A stretch of 64,000 nucleotides of DNA from Candidatus Aminicenantes bacterium (GCA_963727095.1 CAVSEQ010000003.1:194016-258015); one strand, 5' to 3'; positions 13,958 through 59,885 are shown, numbered from the stretch's first letter. Notes: generated by a model from the sequence alone, not told the origin. Translations and numbers: made by a program.

Positions 13958-15378
13958 ATGGAACTGCGCAAGATCAACGAGATCACCTGGGAGATTCCCA
14001 AACAGGGGGACATGAACGTTCCGGCTCTCATCTATGCGTCCGAAAAGTTGTTGGCCGACGTGCGGCGTGACATGACCCTGACCCAGGCCCGGAACGTGGC
14101 CTGCCTGCCGGGAATCCAATGCATGTCATACGTCATGCCCGACGCGCACCAGGGGTACGGCTTTCCGATCGGCGGTGTCGCGGCCTTCGACCTGGACGAG
14201 GGTGTCATTTCGCCGGGCGGGGTCGGCTATGATATCAACTGCGGCGTCCGGCTGCTCCGGAGCGATTTCACGGACAAGGACGTCACGGAGAAACGCAAGG
14301 AGCTTTTGGCCGAAATTTTTCAAGAGGTTCCAGCCGGCGTGGGGAAAGGGGGCGTCACCAGGCTCACCCGAAAGGTCCTCGCGGACATTCTCGTCAAAGG
14401 CGCGGAATGGGCCGTGGAGAATGGGTACGGCACGCACGACGATCTCGAGCGGACCGAGGAATACGGCCGCATGAAGGACGCGGACCCGGCCGGACTATCC
14501 GAGCGCGCTTTGGAACGCGGCGTTCCCCAACTCGGCACGCTCGGCGCCGGCAACCATTTTCTCGAAATTCAAAAAGTCGTCGAGATTCAGGACAGGAACG
14601 CGGCCGACGCTTTCGGGATCACTTCGGTGGGTCAGATCCTGATCATGATCCATTGCGGCAGCCGCGGCCTTGGGCATCAGGTCGCGACGGACTTCATCGA
14701 ACTCATGGAAAACGCCTTTGGGACCAAGGGGCTGCCCGACCGCGAGCTGGTCAACGCGCCCTTTCGTTCCGCCCTCGGCCAGCGCTATTATCGTTCGATG
14801 TGCGGCGCGGTGAATTACGCGTTTGCCAATCGTCAAATGATTGCCCACTGGGTCCGCAACGTTTTCGCCAAGGTCATGGGAACGGCCGCCGGGATGGGGC
14901 AGATCTACGATGTCTGTCATAACGTCGCCAAGGTCGAGAAGCACGACTTGGGGGGCGCGCCGTGGATCTTTGCGTCCACCGCAAAGGCGCGACGCGCAGC
15001 TTCGGCCCGGGCCGGCCGGAGATCCCCGCCGCGTACAGGTCTATCGGCCAGCCGGTTCTGATTCCCGGCAGCATGGGGACGGCGTCCTATGTCCTGGTCG
15101 GCACCGCCGAGGCAGAACGGTTGAGCTTCAGCTCCACGGCCCACGGCGCGGGGCGGGTCATGTCCAGGCACGAAGCCATGCGGCGTTTCCGAGGGGAGCG
15201 CATCCGCGACGAGATGGCGGCCAGGGGGATCGAGCTCAAGGCGACGAGCTGGAAGGGCGTCGCCGAGGAAGCCGCCCCCGCCTATAAGGACGTGGACGAG
15301 GTCGTGCGGGTTTCCCACGAAGTCGGCCTCGGCCGGATCGTGGCGCGGCTTGTCCCCGTCGGCGTCATGAAAGGATAG
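13958..15378 (+). CDS. rtcB: RNA-splicing ligase RtcB, interrupted by an apparent -1 frameshift near 14950-14960 (poly-G run); N-part frame 2 to ~14955, C-part frame 1 from ~14962
   Basis: ORFs 13958..15061 and 14962..15378 are both RtcB ([24 protein letters not shown] | [23 protein letters not shown]); reading one extra G gives the expected ...[21 protein letters not shown]... Confidence 0.85.
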
Positions 15379-15548
15379 GCCAATCGAGCCCCTTTCCCTG
15401 CCGGAGCTTCTCGGGGCATTCCCTCCGGCCGGGAGCGGACTCTCGGGAGCGACCAACACGGGTGAGGCGGAGTGACGCGGAGCCTCACCTGTGAGAAATA
15501 TCTTGAACAGGTGTTGCCTCTTGGCCTCGCCGGCGGGAAATATATGAC

Positions 15549-17150
15549 TTGAGGCTTGGAACCGACTCCTCGGTGGATTTGCGTCAGCGGGAGGCCGCTC
15601 TTTGCCCCGTTGACTTTTCGGACGGCCGTTCATATAAAGGATGCATGCGTGTCGTGCTGGCCGGATACAATGTGGACAGCTCCGTCCTCGAGGAACTAAA
15701 GAAGAACTCGCCGCCGCGCGACGATGTGACGCCGGAAACGCTCTCGGCGTCATACGCCCGCATCTCGAGAGACCCCCGTCCTGCCGACGAACTGAGGGCC
15801 GCGGCCCGGTCTGAGGTCGAACGGGCCCGCCGATCGAATGCGGCCATTATTTTTAAAATGGGCCATCATTCAGTGGCCGAGCATGCCGTTTTTAATTTCG
15901 ACATCATCGGGGTCAGCCGGCTGGCCATCGAGGAAATCGAACGATTCCGGCTCTGTTCTTTCACGGAAAAGTCGCAGCGCTATATCACGCTTGGAAGCGA
16001 TTTCGTGGTCCCCGCGGAGATCACGCGCGCCGGCAAGGCTAAGGTTTTCGTCGCGACCGTCAAGGCCCAGAACGCCCTTTATCACCGTTTGTTCGAAAAG
16101 CTCAAGCCTTTCTTTTTTGAGACGCACCGCGCGGAAGCGGCCGATCCGAGGAACCGGGCAATCCTCGAAGGCTGGGCCAAAGAAGACGCGCGCTACATCG
16201 TGAGCCTGGCGACGGAAGGCCAGCTCGGCATGACCATCAACGCCCGCAACCTCGAGCTTCTCATCCGGCGCTTTGCCGGCAGGAATAGCGACGAAATACG
16301 GGAGATCAGCGGCCGGATCGCCTCCTTGGCAAGGGAGGTGGCCCCTTCCATCATCCTGTTCACCGAGGCCTCTGAATTCGATGCCAAGACTCCCCTCGGC
16401 ACAGGGGCCGCCGTGTCCGCTCTTCTCCCGGCGGGCGGCTTTGCCCGCACCAGCCGGGCCTCTGCCCGCACGCCCGTGGCCCTGGCCGGCTGCACACCCG
16501 ATGGGGATGCGCAAATCCTCGCCGCCCTGCTCCACACGGCCTCCCATCTGAGCTACGATCAGTGCCTCCGAAGGGTGAAGAGGGCATCCTCGGCCGGCCG
16601 GCGCAACCTCGCCCGGAGCGCCTTCCGGCATATGGAGTTCTACGACTTTCCTCTTCGAGAATTCGAATACGCCGGCTTCCTGTTCGACCTCGTGGTATCG
16701 GCGTCGTGCTTTGCCCAGCTCAAGCGTCACCGGATGGCGACGCTGACCTGTCAAGGCTATGATCCCGCCCTGGGCGTCACTGTGCCGCCCTCGATCGAAG
16801 CCGTCGGCGCCGCGTCCGAATTCCGAGACTTGATCGGCCGCACGGATGACGTCCACGGCAGGCTCGCGAAAGAGGTCGGCCCGGCCGCCGATTATGTGCT
16901 GACCAACGCCCACCGGCGCCGGGTTCTCCTTGGAGTTAACGTGCGCGAGCTCTATCACATCTCCCGGCTCAGAGAGGATGCGACCGCGCAATGGGAGATC
17001 CGGAAGCTCGCGGCCGGGATGACGCGGCTGGCAAAAAAACGGATGCCGCTGGCCTGCCTGCTCCTCGGCGGAAAGGACGCCTATCCGGAAATCTACAAAA
17101 AGGTCTTCGGACGTCCGCCGCAAATGAAGCCGCCGAAGATGTTCAGCTGA
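15549..17150 (+). CDS. thyX: Flavin-dependent thymidylate synthase ThyX, tandem two-domain form (start possibly ATG 15645)
   Basis: Domain 1 SRLAIEEIERFRLCSFTEKSQRY (ThyX SQRY motif, RHR degraded to RFR); domain 2 LKRHRMATLTCQGY (RHR retained, SQRY degraded). Confidence 0.6.
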   Translation: MRLGTDSSVDLRQREAALCPVDFSDGRSYKGCMRVVLAGYNVDSSVLEELKKNSPPRDDVTPETLSASYARISRDPRPADELRAAARSEVERARRSNAAIIFKMGHHSVAEHAVFNFDIIGVSRLAIEEIERFRLCSFTEKSQRYITLGSDFVVPAEITRAGKAKVFVATVKAQNALYHRLFEKLKPFFFETHRAEAADPRNRAILEGWAKEDARYIVSLATEGQLGMTINARNLELLIRRFAGRNSDEIREISGRIASLAREVAPSIILFTEASEFDAKTPLGTGAAVSALLPAGGFARTSRASARTPVALAGCTPDGDAQILAALLHTASHLSYDQCLRRVKRASSAGRRNLARSAFRHMEFYDFPLREFEYAGFLFDLVVSASCFAQLKRHRMATLTCQGYDPALGVTVPPSIEAVGAASEFRDLIGRTDDVHGRLAKEVGPAADYVLTNAHRRRVLLGVNVRELYHISRLREDATAQWEIRKLAAGMTRLAKKRMPLACLLLGGKDAYPEIYKKVFGRPPQMKPPKMFS

Positions 17151-23120: not shown

Positions 23121-23219
23121 TCCATGATATCAGCAGGGTGAAGCCGTTGTCAACGGAATGAGGCTGAACTGCTTTTGGCATTGCCCGGAAAGATGCGTGA
23201 AGCAGAGGGTAAAAGAGTC

Positions 23220-23515
23220 GTGCCAGATATCTCCCACCAGTGAGGCTAATAGGTAGGCTCTGTTTAAGACATTTCTTAAAAGTGCGGCTTCAAGACTAGA
23301 TCAAAAACTCATTTTAGATATTTTCCCCCAGTGAGGCGTCGAGTCGCTTAGGCGAGAAGAAAGACCCAAGGGTTGTTTCGGATATTTCCCACCAGTGAGG
23401 CGTCGAGAAAGATCGAGGACTCGTTTCAGATGTTTCCCAAAAGTGTGGCTCCGTGCCGCTCCGCCGCACTTTTGATGGTCGCTCCAAAGACTCCCTCCCA
23501 GCCGCTCCCTGCCGG
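23220..23515. repeat. Array of about five degenerate short repeats (core ~AGATRTTTCYYAMMAGTGMGGC, some followed by GTCGAG), with an AAAAGTGTGGC...GCCGCACTTTT hairpin and a GGTCGCTCC-AAAGACTCC...CCCTGCCGG tail module
   Basis: Units at ~23225, 23268, 23316, 23381, 23428 read in sequence; same unit family and order as the locus at 58597-58960. Confidence 0.5.
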
Positions 23516-23565
23516 AAAGAGTATTCTGAGCTACTCCGTCGGGATATCGGGTGCCGCAAAGGAAT

Positions 23566-25450: not shown

Positions 25451-25524
25451 GCCAGCGTAGCTCAGTTAGGTAGAGCGGCTGATTTGTAATCAGCGGGTCA
25501 GGGGTTCGAATCCCTTCGCTGGCT
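25451..25524 (+). tRNA. thrU: tRNA-Thr (anticodon TGT)
   Basis: Cloverleaf: acceptor GCCAGCG/CGCTGGC, anticodon loop TTTGTAA, T-loop TTCGAAT. Confidence 0.85.
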
Positions 25525-25628
25525 TAAAAGCGGCGATAGAACGCGCTATCTGGCAACGGAATATCCTGACCCTGACGGAGGGATGCTTATCCTGGTCGAA
25601 CGTGGGCATCGAAAGTGATTCATGGCTT

Positions 25629-25711
25629 GGGCAGGTTCCAGAGTGGCCAAATGGGGCGGGCTGTAAACCCGCTGCGGAAACGCTTCGGAGGTTCGAATCC
25701 TTCCCTGCCCA
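25629..25711 (+). tRNA. tyrU: tRNA-Tyr (anticodon GTA), long variable arm
   Basis: Acceptor GGGCAGG/CCTGCCC, anticodon loop CTGTAAA, long variable arm, T-loop TTCGAAT. Confidence 0.85.
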
Positions 25712-25715
25712 CTTC

Positions 25716-25789
<74 letters not shown>

Positions 25790-25807
25790 CTTGTTCGAGC
25801 ATGTTGG

Positions 25808-25880
25808 GCCCAAGTAGCTCAGTTGGCAGAGCACGTCCTTGGTAAGGACGGGGTCACCAGTTCAATTCTGGTCTTGGGCT
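25808..25880 (+). tRNA. thrT: tRNA-Thr (anticodon GGT)
   Basis: Acceptor GCCCAAG/CTTGGGC, anticodon loop TTGGTAA. Confidence 0.85.
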
Positions 25881-25933: not shown

Positions 25934-27133
<1,200 letters not shown>

Positions 27134-42147: not shown

Positions 42148-43353
42148 GTGATGGCGAAGGAAAAGTTTCAGAGGACGAAACCCCACGTCAACGTCGGGAC
42201 GATCGGTCACATCGATCACGGCAAGACCACGCTGACCGCAGCCATAACGAAGGTCTTGGCGACAAAAGGCCTGGCCCAGGCCAAGACCTATGATGAAGTG
42301 GCCAAGGCCGACGCCAAGATGTTCCGGCGGGACGCGACGAAGATCCTGACGGTGGCTCTCAGCCATGTGGAATACGAGACGGAGCACCGGCACTACGCCC
42401 ACATCGACTGCCCGGGTCACGCGGACTACATCAAAAACATGATTTCCGGCGCGGCCCAGATGGACGGCGCCGTGCTCGTGGTCTCCGCGGCCGACGGCCC
42501 CATGCCTCAGACGCGGGAGCATATTCTCCTGGCCCGCCAGGTGAACGTGCCGGCCATCGTCGTGTTCATGAACAAGTGCGACCTGGTGGACGACCCCGAG
42601 ATCCTGGACCTCGTCGAGCTCGAAGTCCGCGAACTCTTGACAAAATACCAGTTCCCCGGGGACAAGATTCCGATCATCCGCGGCAGCGCGACAAAGGCCA
42701 TGGAAGACGTCAACGGCGAGGCCGCCAAGCCGATCTGGGACCTGGTCAATGCCATGGATACGTTTATCCCTGAGCCCGTCCGCGAAGTGGACAAGCCGTT
42801 CCAGATGGCCATCGAGGACGTGTTCTCGATCACGGGCCGCGGCACCGTCGTGACGGGCCGGGTCGAGCGGGGCGTCGTCAAGGTCGGCGACGAAGTCGAA
42901 ATCGTCGGACTGCGCGAAACACGCAAGACGATCGTGACCGGCGTCGAAATGTTCCGCAAGCTGCTGGATCAGGCTCAAGCGGGCGACAACATCGGCTGCC
43001 TCCTGCGCGGCGTCGGGAAGGACGAAGTCGAACGAGGGCAGGTCCTGGCCAAGCCCGGATCCATCACCCCGCACCGACGGTTCACGGCGGCGATCTTCGC
43101 GCTGACGAAGGAAGAGGGCGGCCGCCATACGCCGTTCTTTAAAGGCTACCGGCCCCAGTTCTATTTCCGGACGACCGACGTGACGGGCTCCGTGAAGCTT
43201 CCGCCGAACGTCGAGATGGTCATGCCGGGCGACAACGTCACCCTCGAGATCGAACTCATCACCGACGTGGCCATGGAGAAGGCCCTGCGGTTCGCCATCC
43301 GTGAGGGCGGCCGGACCGTGGGCGCCGGAACGGTCGCCGAGATTCTGGAGTAG
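42148..43353 (+). CDS. tuf: Elongation factor Tu, copy 2, with divergent, 5-aa-longer switch-I region
   Basis: [21 protein letters not shown]; residues ~48-72 read [29 protein letters not shown] instead of the canonical [10 protein letters not shown](K/R)xRGITINxxHVEY present in copy 1. Confidence 0.93.
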
Positions 43354-58134: not shown

Positions 58135-58541
58135 GGCACAACGTCAAAAGAGGACAGCTGAGCCGGACCATGGGCCACAGGCGCGCCCTGCTGCGGAACC
58201 TCGTCACGTCCTTCCTCGAGCGCGAGAGAATGACAACAACCCTCGCCAAGGCCAAAGCGGCGAAACCTCTGGCCGAGAAGATGATCACCCTCGGAAAGAA
58301 GGGCACCCTTCATGCCCGCCGCCAGGTCCTGGCTTATCTGACCAAAGAATCGGCGGTCACGAAGCTGTTCGCGGAAATCGCGCCCCGCTTCTCGGAACGG
58401 CCCGGCGGGTACGCCCGCATCGTCAAGCTCGACCGGAGGGCAGGAGACGGAGCCGAGATGGCCATGCTGGAACTCATCGGGTCAGAGTTCAAGAAGAAGG
58501 CTAAGAAAAAGAAGGAAGGGAAGAAGACCCTGGCGAAGTAA
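58131..58541 (+). CDS. rplQ: 50S ribosomal protein L17
   Basis: MRHNVKRGQLSRTMGHRRALLRNL conserved start. Confidence 0.95.
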   Translation: MRHNVKRGQLSRTMGHRRALLRNLVTSFLERERMTTTLAKAKAAKPLAEKMITLGKKGTLHARRQVLAYLTKESAVTKLFAEIAPRFSERPGGYARIVKLDRRAGDGAEMAMLELIGSEFKKKAKKKKEGKKTLAK

Positions 58542-58556
58542 ACTGAGATTATGATG

Positions 58557-58589
58557 GTGGCCCGGCTTCCGCCGGGCCATTTTTTTTGT
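58557..58589 (+). terminator. Rho-independent terminator of the alpha operon: GGCCCGGC-TTCC-GCCGGGCC followed by T8
   Basis: Perfect 8-bp GC stem plus T-run read in sequence, 16 nt after rplQ stop. Confidence 0.8.
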
Positions 58590-58596
58590 TCTCTTT

Positions 58597-58960
58597 TAAG
58601 AAATCTCCCTCCAGTGAGGCGTCGAGCCACTCCGCCTCGCTGGAGTCGGTCGCTCCGGAGACTCTGTTCCCTGCCGGCCCAGCTCCCGCCATGCCATTTT
58701 TTTATTCCGGTTGCAGATATTTCTCACTGGTGAGGCTTCGAGCAAGTTCCAAAACTCAATTCAGATGTTTCCCACCACTGAGGCCAAGAGGTAAGACCTG
58801 TTTAAGATGTTTCTTAAAAGTGCGGCTGGGAACCAAAGCCTAACCAAGATATTTCTTAAAAGTGCGGCTTCGAGTCGCTCAGCCGCACTTTTATTGGTCG
58901 CTTCGAAGACTCCGCTCCCTGCCGGTCCTCTCCGAAGACTCCGCTGCGTTCCGGTCCCGT
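58597..58960. repeat. Second copy of the repeat-array element (units at ~58600, 58715, 58762, 58805, 58848; hairpins CCAGTGAGGCG...CGCCTCGCTGG and AAAAGTGCGGC...GCCGCACTTTT; tail module GGTCGCTYCGRAGACTCC...CCCTGCCGG present 2-3 times)
   Basis: Same unit family, order and flanking modules as the locus at 23220-23515 (e.g. ...ACTGAGGCC AAGAGGTAAGACCTGTTTAAG ATGTTTCTTAAAAGTGCGGCT vs ...AGTGAGGCT AATAGGTAGGCTCTGTTTAAG ACATTTCTTAAAAGTGCGGCT). Confidence 0.5.
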
Positions 58961-58970
58961 GCCGCCGCGC

Positions 58971-59885
58971 CTATTGCTTCGGGCGCCTGGCGCCCTGATA
59001 AATCTTTTGCCAGTACGCGTCCTTGAGGTTCGAGATCTGGACGATCGGCTTCTCGTGGGTCGTCGCGTTGATGAATTCCTCTCCGCTGATCATCATTCCC
59101 ACGTGCCCGATCTTATCCTTAGCACGGCCGAAAAAGACGAGATCGCCGGCCGACTCCTGGCCGGCGGGAACTTCCATGAGGCCGCTTCCTTCGAACTGGA
59201 TATCGGCATCCCTGAGGATGGGGACGCCGTTCATCTTGTAGATGAGCTGGACGAATCCCGAACAATCGAGGCCCAGAGGCGATCCGCCGCCCCATAGATA
59301 GGGCACACCGATGAAGCGTTTTGCCAAGGCAACCATATCTTCCGGAGGGCGGCGCGGCCAGACCATAGGAGCGTCTCGGATTTCGCCGTCGCCCTTCTGG
59401 ATCCAAGCTCGAGTGCCGCTGGGAAGAGTGACCTCGGACCATCGCCCGCCGCGGTCGCCACTGATTTCGAGAACCGCGCTGATCGGAGCGGTTTGGACGG
59501 GCTTGTGCTTTGTGACGTCGGTCTCCCGGTACGTGTTGGCGAGCAACGCCGTGACGACCATGATCTTTCCCTCCGACGCGTAGGCTTTTTCGCCGCCTTT
59601 CAGGAAGCGCAGGGACGGACCGATGACCCATCCTTTATAGGTGTCCGGGGTTTGCACCTGAAACCAATCCTCGCCCGCGGGATTCCGTTCCTTCTTGATG
59701 ATTTTGACGTTCGTGCCCAGGATGGCCTGGCTGACGACGTCCGACATGGCATCACCGCGGCTGTGCATGTTCTCGACACTGGTGACGACGACCGCCGCGC
59801 TCGGGAGGACCTGCTCTCCGGCCGCCCGTTGGGCGCCCAAGGCAAGAAACGGGATCGCCACCGCCATCATAAAGGATATCTTCAT
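58971..59885 (-). CDS. NlpC/P60-family (C40) cell-wall peptidase with N-terminal SH3-like domains, secreted
   Basis: Signal peptide MKISFMMAVAIPFLALGA; catalytic YLWGG...DCSGFV...H motifs. Confidence 0.85.
   Translation of the reverse strand: MKISFMMAVAIPFLALGAQRAAGEQVLPSAAVVVTSVENMHSRGDAMSDVVSQAILGTNVKIIKKERNPAGEDWFQVQTPDTYKGWVIGPSLRFLKGGEKAYASEGKIMVVTALLANTYRETDVTKHKPVQTAPISAVLEISGDRGGRWSEVTLPSGTRAWIQKGDGEIRDAPMVWPRRPPEDMVALAKRFIGVPYLWGGGSPLGLDCSGFVQLIYKMNGVPILRDADIQFEGSGLMEVPAGQESAGDLVFFGRAKDKIGHVGMMISGEEFINATTHEKPIVQISNLKDAYWQKIYQGARRPKQ

Follow-up and report, generated by a model that had tools for sequence, protein, structure and literature searches.

Among the dispersed bacterial repeats that come closest to the sequences described here, REP elements are 20-40 bp long, with loops mostly of 2-5 nucleotides (nt) and a GTAG or CGTC tag at the end of the palindrome (PMC3733652), and the BOX elements of Streptococcus pneumoniae consist of boxA, n copies of boxB, and boxC (PMC3049150). 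Our subject is a cluster of repeats at positions 58586-58960 of a 64,000-nt stretch from Candidatus Aminicenantes bacterium (GCA_963727095.1 CAVSEQ010000003.1:194016-258015), which in its full length is called the window. The cluster lies between the gene rplQ and a convergent NlpC/P60 gene and is composed of two complete and three truncated copies of a unit of about 96 nt. These are best filed as copies of a structured interspersed repeat that is REP/BIME-like and, in its modular arrays, BOX-like, and that represents an undescribed family; our literature search found no paper on Aminicenantes repeats or RNA motifs, nor on this family.

REP, BIME and REPIN elements share with our unit a short, extragenic, high-copy hairpin with complementary changes, the occurrence as singletons and as head-to-head dimers of fixed spacing, mosaics with other modules, the lack of a target-site duplication, and long persistence in a lineage (PMC3733652). 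The unit differs from REP elements in being three times longer (~96 nt), in conserving a 13-nt loop and some 60 nt of unpaired sequence, and in bearing neither GTAG nor CGTC at the foot of its stem on either strand, the flanks being ATTTCC (5') and nTGGTCGC (3'). Moreover, the stem of the unit is free while its loop and flanks are fixed, and the family spans many genomes of a class-level clade instead of being genome-specific.

The repeats of the window recall BOX in that an internal module appears to be repeated in tandem in variable number before a closing terminal module. Other likenesses are a module number that varies between related genomes, the lack of a dedicated gene, and a stem-loop predicted to form if transcribed (PMC3049150). 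There is, however, no sequence relationship, and the phylum is another one; the repeated module is here a unit truncated within the loop, after its leader, head, and 5' arm, and not a separate module, and single units have none of the terminal inverted repeats of BOX. SPRITE elements resemble the cluster as dispersed hairpins between convergent genes, and the stems in the window end in A4/T4 with a short U run after them (PMC3049150). Unlike SPRITE, the family has a consensus without a U tract and is no more frequent at 3' ends or in convergent spacers than elsewhere, and it has no homology to SPRITE.

The subterminal hairpins of IS200/IS605 elements and of their miniature derivatives, and the attC sites of integrons, are single-strand-specific hairpin substrates. 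What is recognised in them is the fold together with a few flanking or extrahelical bases, and not the sequence of the stem, and they leave no target-site duplication (PMC6006769). Our unit would resemble them in these respects. It differs in that no tnpA, tnpB or intI adjoins the units, in having one hairpin type where IS200/IS605 elements have distinct left and right ends, and in not being arranged in cassette arrays of uniform orientation as attC sites are.

Several other assignments were rejected. A miniature inverted-repeat derivative of a DDE transposon does not fit, the single units having no terminal inverted repeats and no target-site duplication. Regarding the families of Rfam 15, the window gives only tRNAs at gathering thresholds, a search of 58540-59000 at a permissive E-value gives only terminator-like sub-threshold noise, and 15 unit-bearing loci (93.8 kb) give only SRP RNA and tRNA. 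As for an intrinsic terminator, the consensus after the stem is nTGGTCGC / GGAAATATCT, with no U tract, and the terminator scan finds the rplQ terminator only; the subfamily of the window alone has four U after the stem and is weakly terminator-like. A CRISPR array was dismissed on its periods of 42-64 nt, its repeats of 63-85% identity, and its "spacers", which are conserved leader sequence.

The repeat cluster downstream of rplQ

The cluster is flanked on the left by the rplQ terminator (58556-58581) and on the right by the stop codon of the NlpC/P60 gene (58971-58973, minus strand). Its features are listed below, the strand of the units being that of the orientation of our alignment, called F; scores are those of R1, a covariance model built from alignment A2 of 114 non-redundant units.

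58556..58581, plus strand: rplQ intrinsic terminator, left boundary of the cluster (terminator scan: 11-bp stem with 8 G-C pairs, then T8)
58586..58681, plus strand: full unit a (R1 87.7 bits, E 1.5e-28), with stem CTCCAGTGAGGC/GCCTCGCTGGAG, loop GTCGAGCCACTCC, and tail GGTCGCTCCGGAGACTCTGTTCCCTGCCGG
58682..58702, plus strand: spacer CAGCTCCCGCCATGCCATTTTTTTA (read from the sequence)
58703..58750, plus strand: half unit h1, with leader, AGATATTTCT, 5' arm CACTGGTGAGGC, and a loop remnant, without 3' arm and without tail (core 58716-58736; repeat families D3 and D9)
58751..58792, plus strand: half unit h2, 42 nt, core AGATGTTTCCCACCACTGAGGC followed by CAAGAGGT (core 58764-58784; D5 block)
58793..58834, plus strand: half unit h3, 42 nt, core AGATGTTTCTTAAAAGTGCGGC followed by TGGGAACC (core 58806-58826; D5)
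58834..58929, plus strand: full unit b (R1 103.1 bits, E 5.5e-34)
58857-58893, plus strand: hairpin of unit b, TAAAAGTGCGGC / loop TTCGAGTCGCTCA / GCCGCACTTTTA
58894-58925, plus strand: tail of unit b, with the isolated covarying pair G58905:C58910
58930..58957, plus strand: partial second tail CTCCGAAGACTCCGCTGCGTTCCGGTCC (family D16, 86% identity to 58901-58928)

Scanning the 64 kb with R1 gives exactly four full units, with scores of 88-103 bits, and the next-best score, 21 bits, belongs to the antisense strand of one of the true units. When up to 3 mismatches are allowed, the window contains 11 occurrences of the 21-nt core GATRTTTCYYAMMAGTGNGGC, compared to 0.10 expected from shuffles, and 5 of the tail motif, compared to 0.77. 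Core matches outside the full units correspond to half units, of which nine were counted in the window beside its four full units. A half unit consists of the leader, the head, the 5' arm, and 6-14 nt of the loop, and runs straight into the leader of the next unit, which explains the periods of 42 and 48 nt.

The minimum free energy folds of unit b have z-scores of -3.6 (plus strand) and -3.7 (minus strand). Among relatives, orthologues of unit b are present in L173, L185, and L176, and those of unit a adjoin the rplQ terminator in L173 and L185, where a related spacer sequence, AAAAAAAGGCACGGCGAGGGCCTGGG, follows on the opposite strand. The partial second tail, which ends at most 13 nt from the NlpC/P60 stop codon, is ancestral, since L173 and L185 carry the same partial tail. 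The junction found in h2 recurs at 15517-15545 on the minus strand.

Two further loci of the window carry the unit:

23213..23414, plus strand: locus 1, four half units (cores at 23226, 23268, 23317, and 23381)
23415..23520, plus strand: full unit of locus 1, stem AAAAGTGTGGC/GCCGCACTTTT (R1 88.7 bits for 23415-23509)
15421..15516, minus strand: full unit of locus 3, stem CACAGGTGAGGC/GCCTCACCCGTG (R1 93.8 bits)
15517..15560, minus strand: half unit of locus 3, ATATATTTCCCGCCGGCGAGGC followed by CAAGAGGC, abutting the full unit (read from the sequence)

Locus 1 is located between the divergent purB (minus) and ECF sigma factor (plus) genes, and the last 11 nt of the tail of its full unit are duplicated. 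Locus 3 has the end of rtcB (15378) on one side and a thyX-like gene on the other, and the junction of its half unit with the leader is the same as that at 58784-58805. Between locus 1 and the cluster, the block 23224-23289 is 85% identical to 58762-58827, the block 23428-23494 is 82% identical to 58847-58913, and the block 23375-23449 is 77% identical to 58710-58784; the global pairwise alignment has a mean column identity of 74%. All three loci carry a composite in which a half unit ending in ...GAGGC-CAAGAGG is followed by the leader and the next unit, and these composite blocks, half unit plus following unit, are 77-85% identical among them. Since the same composite is found at all three loci, the composites must have been copied as blocks and did not arise by local slippage.

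A sequence-only reading of this stretch had reported the cluster as the second copy of a repeat element also present at locus 1. The presence of the repeat is confirmed by the R1 units and by the core and tail counts above chance. The likeness of 58586-58960 to 23213-23520 likewise extends beyond a short core, since the flanking modules align too, in multi-module blocks of 77-85% and in the overall alignment of 74%. That reading had the modules in the same order, which is overstated, the blocks that start at 23224 and 23375 being swapped at 58762 and 58710; it also counted two loci where the window has three, having missed 15421-15560 on the minus strand. The tail, which it saw two to three times, occurs two and a half times in 58586-58960: complete at 58648-58680 and 58896-58928, and partial at 58930-58957.

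Consensus structure and covariation

Homologues were collected by an arm-motif scan of species-representative genomes and then by a tail-motif scan of metagenomes, the latter giving at least 120 stretches. In orientation F, the consensus of A2 comprises a 12-nt leader AAGACTCnnTTC, the head AGATATTTCC, a 12-bp stem that encloses a 13-nt loop TCCGAGnCGCTCC, the return arm, two bases, and a C-rich tail, GGTCGCTYC-x-y-AGA-z-TCCGCTCCCTGCCG. Its hairpin core spans 37 nt (12+13+12), and each unit contains three direct CGCTCC motifs. In A2, the information content is zero from 12 nt upstream of the head and from 4 nt past the tail, and for this reason we assign the unit a length of ~96-100 nt, with sharp ends; neither flank holds a conserved promoter.

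The hairpin and the x:z pair of the tail are under selection. Throughout A2, the sequence of the stem is free and its pairing is kept, with compensatory changes at all 12 stem pairs (in up to 48 of the 114 sequences), and the loop and flanks are conserved. When the x:z pair is included, double changes occur at 13 of 13 pairs, and 93% of the cells are paired on the named structure, compared to 73% in shuffles and 31-45% when the partners are slid (n=114). The strongest covariation belongs to the isolated pair x:z (T:A 44, G:C 39, C:G 23), which is Watson-Crick in 106 of the 114 units and whose neighbouring positions are invariant and non-complementary. The head and loop are conserved to at least 85-97%, although they were not used for retrieval, and the same tail, with a few mismatches, is present in units that were retrieved independently through the arm motif or synteny. 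Additional tail helices from RNAalifold were rejected, as was a GGGAG/CUCUC helix that appeared in a single fold, since covariation supports none of them. A variant in L082 (101-160) is a perfect long palindrome with the head motif on both sides (GGAGATTTCCCAGAAGCGCCGCG...CGCGGCGCTTCTGGGAAATCTCC), which implies that the head can join an extended stem.

Given this pattern, the notion that the repeats encode small proteins is untenable, and its probability practically nil. The open reading frames (ORFs) 58586-58843 and 58807-58998 and their counterparts at locus 1 do span units, at 63-85 amino acids, but the covariation is incompatible with coding: the changes in the stem are compensatory at the nucleotide level, and x:z links a third with a second codon position in the sole long frame. 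Furthermore, the ORFs have no Pfam match, the units are found in either orientation and also in truncated form, and they hold no conserved start codon or ribosome-binding site.

Stem mismatches on the aligned strand are unevenly distributed, A.C or C.A accounting for 47 cells (~30 independent events) versus 12 cells of G.T or T.G. Because A.C reads as G.U (or G.T) on the complement, this asymmetry suggests that the complementary, purine-rich strand has been selected to fold. By this sequence criterion, the folding strand would more likely be the complement of the aligned strand, a conclusion of moderate strength with which RNA and single-stranded DNA are alike compatible. The complementary strand reads 5'-CGGCAGGGAGCGGAnUCUnnGGAGCGACC-hairpin-GGGAAAUAUCUGAAAC and contains 4-5 GGA motifs, two of them in the loop.

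The same observations bear on the reading of the units as functional RNA modules, either a small RNA (sRNA) or a protein-binding element on read-through transcripts. The 4-5 GGA/GGAG motifs of the purine strand could titrate a CsrA/Rsm-like protein, in the manner of sponge sRNAs of the CsrB/RsmZ type, or ribosomes, or could mark transcripts for processing. This would agree with the covariation at every stem pair, with the A.C over G.T asymmetry, which suggests that one strand folds with G.U allowed, and with a loop and head that are kept across genomes with near-saturated synonymous sites without having been used for retrieval. The orthologous copies described below add compensation in situ, and at the NlpC/rplQ spacer the purine strand of all retained units lies in the NlpC sense, directly past the stop codon. 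On the other hand, nothing is conserved beyond the unit, so that there is no shared promoter or terminator, and the units have no Rfam match and a consensus without a U tract after the hairpin. Their genomic placement, presented in the next section, also speaks against RNA modules, and we regard them as the main rival explanation of the family, though a rather unlikely one.

Distribution, genomic context, and the transposase test

The scan of species-representative genomes returned 52 stretches, only three of which also have the tail, all of them metagenome-assembled genomes (MAGs) of Candidatus Aminicenantes, and the scan of metagenomes showed the family in at least 120 sediment or wetland stretches. 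The NlpC/P60 homologues are named Candidatus Aminicenantes or Aminicenantales. No similarity to the unit was found in the viral contigs, phages, and plasmids searched. A match in a Parabacteroides MAG (L004 6457-6760), with at least seven tandem copies of a 42-nt period starting with GATGTTTCCCACCGGTGGG, was judged unrelated. This tandem repeat is situated downstream of a TonB-dependent receptor gene and has ~19 nt and the period in common with the half units of the window; the likeness is probably a chance match, of which dozens are expected from that scan. In an independent short-read assembly (Logan contig of ERR11594405), the rplQ region stops ~100 nt past rplQ, inside the cluster (58541-58640). 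Contigs with the same rplQ stop ~100 nt after the gene, as at a dispersed repeat, and we conclude from this that the family fragments short-read assemblies.

The units are extragenic, only 5 of them lying inside confident ORFs. By placement, 20 are convergent, 19 divergent, and 29 tandem (16 versus 13 in the two senses), and their distance to stops is no smaller than that to starts. The contexts are unrelated and of a housekeeping kind, with no gene family enriched in a set of 316 neighbouring ORFs, and the genes between inverted unit pairs are ordinary transporters (MntP and NhaC). No sigma-70 promoter was found beside or inside the units, the sole promoter-like site being that of purB itself. 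Head-to-head dimers are represented by 18 distinct cases with overlapping leaders and with gaps between the two units that range from -10 to +4 nt. Of 158 units, about 23% are arranged in this way; none are tail-to-tail, and there are 4 tandem pairs. The window itself has no head-to-head dimers. Its full units can be preceded by an array of half units, numbering 1, 3, and 4 in the three cases, and such arrays are rare elsewhere (L107, L118, and L173). Across the flanks of the units, the longest direct repeat is distributed as in a shuffled control, and single units are asymmetric and without terminal inverted repeats.

These placements are not those expected of an RNA gene: orientation to the neighbours is random, there is no preference for stops over starts, a quarter of the units are head to head, and divergent promoter regions hold units as often as other sites. 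The sequence-only reading had proposed a dispersed element, not a local regulatory site, in the form of either an sRNA family or a mobile or REP-like element. Its first part holds well, with three loci in 64 kb in unrelated contexts, units in three Aminicenantes MAGs and at least 120 metagenome stretches, presence and absence at the orthologous NlpC/rplQ spacer, and no bias of orientation or position. Between the two forms, the evidence leans away from an independent sRNA gene because of the lack of a conserved promoter on either side, the lack of orientation bias, and the head-to-head dimers. Among the checks that it had suggested, target-site duplications were not detected, and terminal inverted repeats are lacking in single units, while head-to-head dimers do form inverted-repeat composites; further copies beyond the window turned up in Aminicenantes MAGs and in metagenomes, in numbers that it had underestimated.

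REP elements are mobilised by RAYT tyrosine transposases. The E. coli RAYT sequence (checked against PDB 4er8) was compared with all six-frame ORFs of the loci. A Y1 transposase was found in L143 (8597-9205) and L161 (2715-3330, minus strand), with 42.6 bits for Pfam Y1_Tnp and 49.6 bits for NCBIfam REP_Tyr_transpos, the latter under the cutoff of 80. RAYT-like homologues are also present on other Aminicenantes contigs (L178-L184). Unlike the genes of REP/REPIN systems, these RAYT-like genes are not flanked by the unit; in L143, L161, L180, and L182 they are flanked by another palindrome, REP-G, GGGGACAYGTACC-loop-GGTACRTGTCCCC, which is absent from the window and present in 27 of 129 loci. 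A covariance model scan within 2.5 kb of the RAYT-like gene in L178-L184 found no 96-nt unit. Because REP-G flanks the gene and no unit lies within 2.5 kb of it, the unit was rejected as the cognate REP of the Aminicenantes RAYT.

Two minor observations concern the RAYT-like genes: the gene is syntenic in two genomes (SSF transporter ... FtsH), and in L143 it is followed by a tandem array of 17-18 nt (AAAGACCGGGGACACGTA, about six copies). A further recurrent module, 'P' (GACGCTGCCCGGGCAGTGATGGGGCCCATGTAGAGACCCCGTAGCGGAGGGG), contains a 14-bp palindrome and a GTAG and was seen in L057 (5711-5760), L131 (4489-4537, minus strand), L172, and L031 (6500-6520); it often abuts the 96-nt unit, which results in BIME-like mosaics.

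Turnover at the NlpC/rplQ spacer and a possible copying mechanism

The convergent NlpC/rplQ pair is syntenic in relatives, with an NlpC identity of 70-79%, and its spacer is occupied as follows.

L186: 48 nt, terminator hairpin only, no unit
L187: 48 nt, REP-G palindrome, no unit
L174: 240 nt, no unit
L176: one unit
L185: two tandem units
L173: the two units of L185, an inserted gene, and a half unit
Window: the two units of L185 and three half units

In L187 (1195-1227), the single REP-G hairpin stands between A and T runs and is apparently a bidirectional terminator.

The copies of the window, L173, and L185 are orthologous, since all of them share the duplicated partial tail beside the NlpC stop codon. 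Between the window and these relatives, identity at the four-fold degenerate sites of NlpC and RplQ amounts to 42-57%, against 70-84% for the orthologous unit b. In the stem of unit b, compensated double changes have occurred in situ (AAAAGTGCGGC/GCCGCACTTTT, ATAAGTGCGGC/GCCGCACTTAT, and AAAAGTGAGGC/GCCTCACTTTT), and the x:z pair flips between G:C and C:G among the orthologues. To judge from these comparisons, units are gained and lost at the scale of genera, and the retained copies are constrained; selection acting on the fold could account for this, and so could conversion by other copies.

The spacer comparison also bears on whether the cluster is simply a local regulatory or termination region of rplQ/NlpC whose likeness to 23220-23515 is incidental. 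The A4/T4 stem ends of the hairpins in the window give a short U run on both strands, and in four genomes unit b comes after the stop codon of NlpC, as such a region would have it. Yet the cluster is preceded by a terminator of rplQ that is strong and canonical, relatives do with a 48-nt spacer without a unit, the family consensus has no U tract, and the same unit occurs at three unrelated loci of the window and in at least 120 metagenome stretches, all of which makes a local region very improbable.

A role in chromosome organisation has been proposed for some REP/BIME elements. By analogy, the units might be host DNA sites for a nucleoid, topoisomerase or replication protein that spread long ago and have been kept for that purpose. 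Their extragenic position without orientation bias, their conservation above that of synonymous sites, the frequent adjacency of REP-G and module 'P', as in BIME mosaics, and the three direct CGCTCC motifs per unit, which could be protein contacts, would all be consistent with such sites. Nevertheless, double-stranded binding would not select for compensation in the stem or for the isolated x:z pair, several relatives lack units in the NlpC/rplQ spacer with no obvious replacement, and there is no candidate protein; we consider this explanation improbable.

A REP/BIME-like element is preferred to an RNA gene or a cis-regulatory RNA because of the sharp ends, the lack of a promoter and of orientation bias, the head-to-head dimers, the copying in blocks, the lack of a target-site duplication, the turnover at the orthologous spacer, and the mosaics. 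A folded single strand that is recognised by a specific protein is implied by the invariance of loop and flanks, by a stem that varies freely yet with compensation, and by the isolated x:z pair. In the form that we favour, to which we give an even chance, the unit is non-autonomous and depends for its copying on a structure-specific enzyme whose action leaves no duplication. The unit would act as a folded single strand whose conserved loop and flanks are read by a trans-acting protein; this protein, probably a structure-specific nuclease or transposase, would copy units and composites into new intergenic sites, and the half units may be by-products of the copying or of recombination between neighbouring units.

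Several points weigh against this copied-element reading. No enzyme tied to the unit was found among Y1/HUH genes near units, in a search limited to the RAYT type. The slow change with compensation at orthologous copies would be more usual for a function under host selection than for selfish DNA, although gene conversion among copies could yield this pattern too. A search of the metagenome loci for filled and empty versions of one site gave only three long syntenic pairs, all identical, and the two closest filled/empty comparisons show replacement or decay, with no clean insertion junction. As to the data themselves, the context statistics use gene calls made by a crude ORF heuristic, and the tail conservation in A2 is inflated because an exact tail pattern served to retrieve most units. 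Counted as independent events, the wobble asymmetry comes down to ~30 versus 12, and the window's own units have 2 G.T and 1 A.C.

A more tentative proposal is that the unit is no junk DNA but the cis element of an undescribed system kept throughout the Aminicenantes, either a new class of structured RNA or a substrate of single-strand DNA transposition or recombination. In the RNA version, a dedicated protein would bind the invariant loop and the purine-rich flank; in the DNA version, an enzyme unrelated to the resident RAYT would be responsible. The x:z pair and the 13-nt loop would then be the recognition features, and the half units abortive products showing where copying starts.

A structure, loop, and flanks that are kept while the stem drifts by compensation usually point to a specific protein partner. 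If a partner enzyme or RNA-binding protein came to light, the unit would represent either a second, RAYT-independent repeat system beside a classical REP-RAYT pair in the same genomes or a new RNA class; with no partner it would be one more REP-like family, of modest interest. To our knowledge, the genome dynamics of the Aminicenantes, abundant uncultured bacteria of sediments, are a blank. The family breeds spurious ORFs, and the covariance model now allows its annotation.

Two observations on the remainder of the window may be added. The rtcB gene next to locus 3 (13958-15378) is divided between two ORFs, 13958-15061 and 14962-15378, that overlap and differ in frame, due to a frameshift near 14960, and is thus a pseudogene or an assembly error. 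Finally, two segments of ~700 nt, 26134-26808 and 42363-43028, are 72-80% identical and 16.2 kb apart; one of them directly follows a cluster of four tRNA genes (25451-25880), and they are probably two copies of tuf (EF-Tu).

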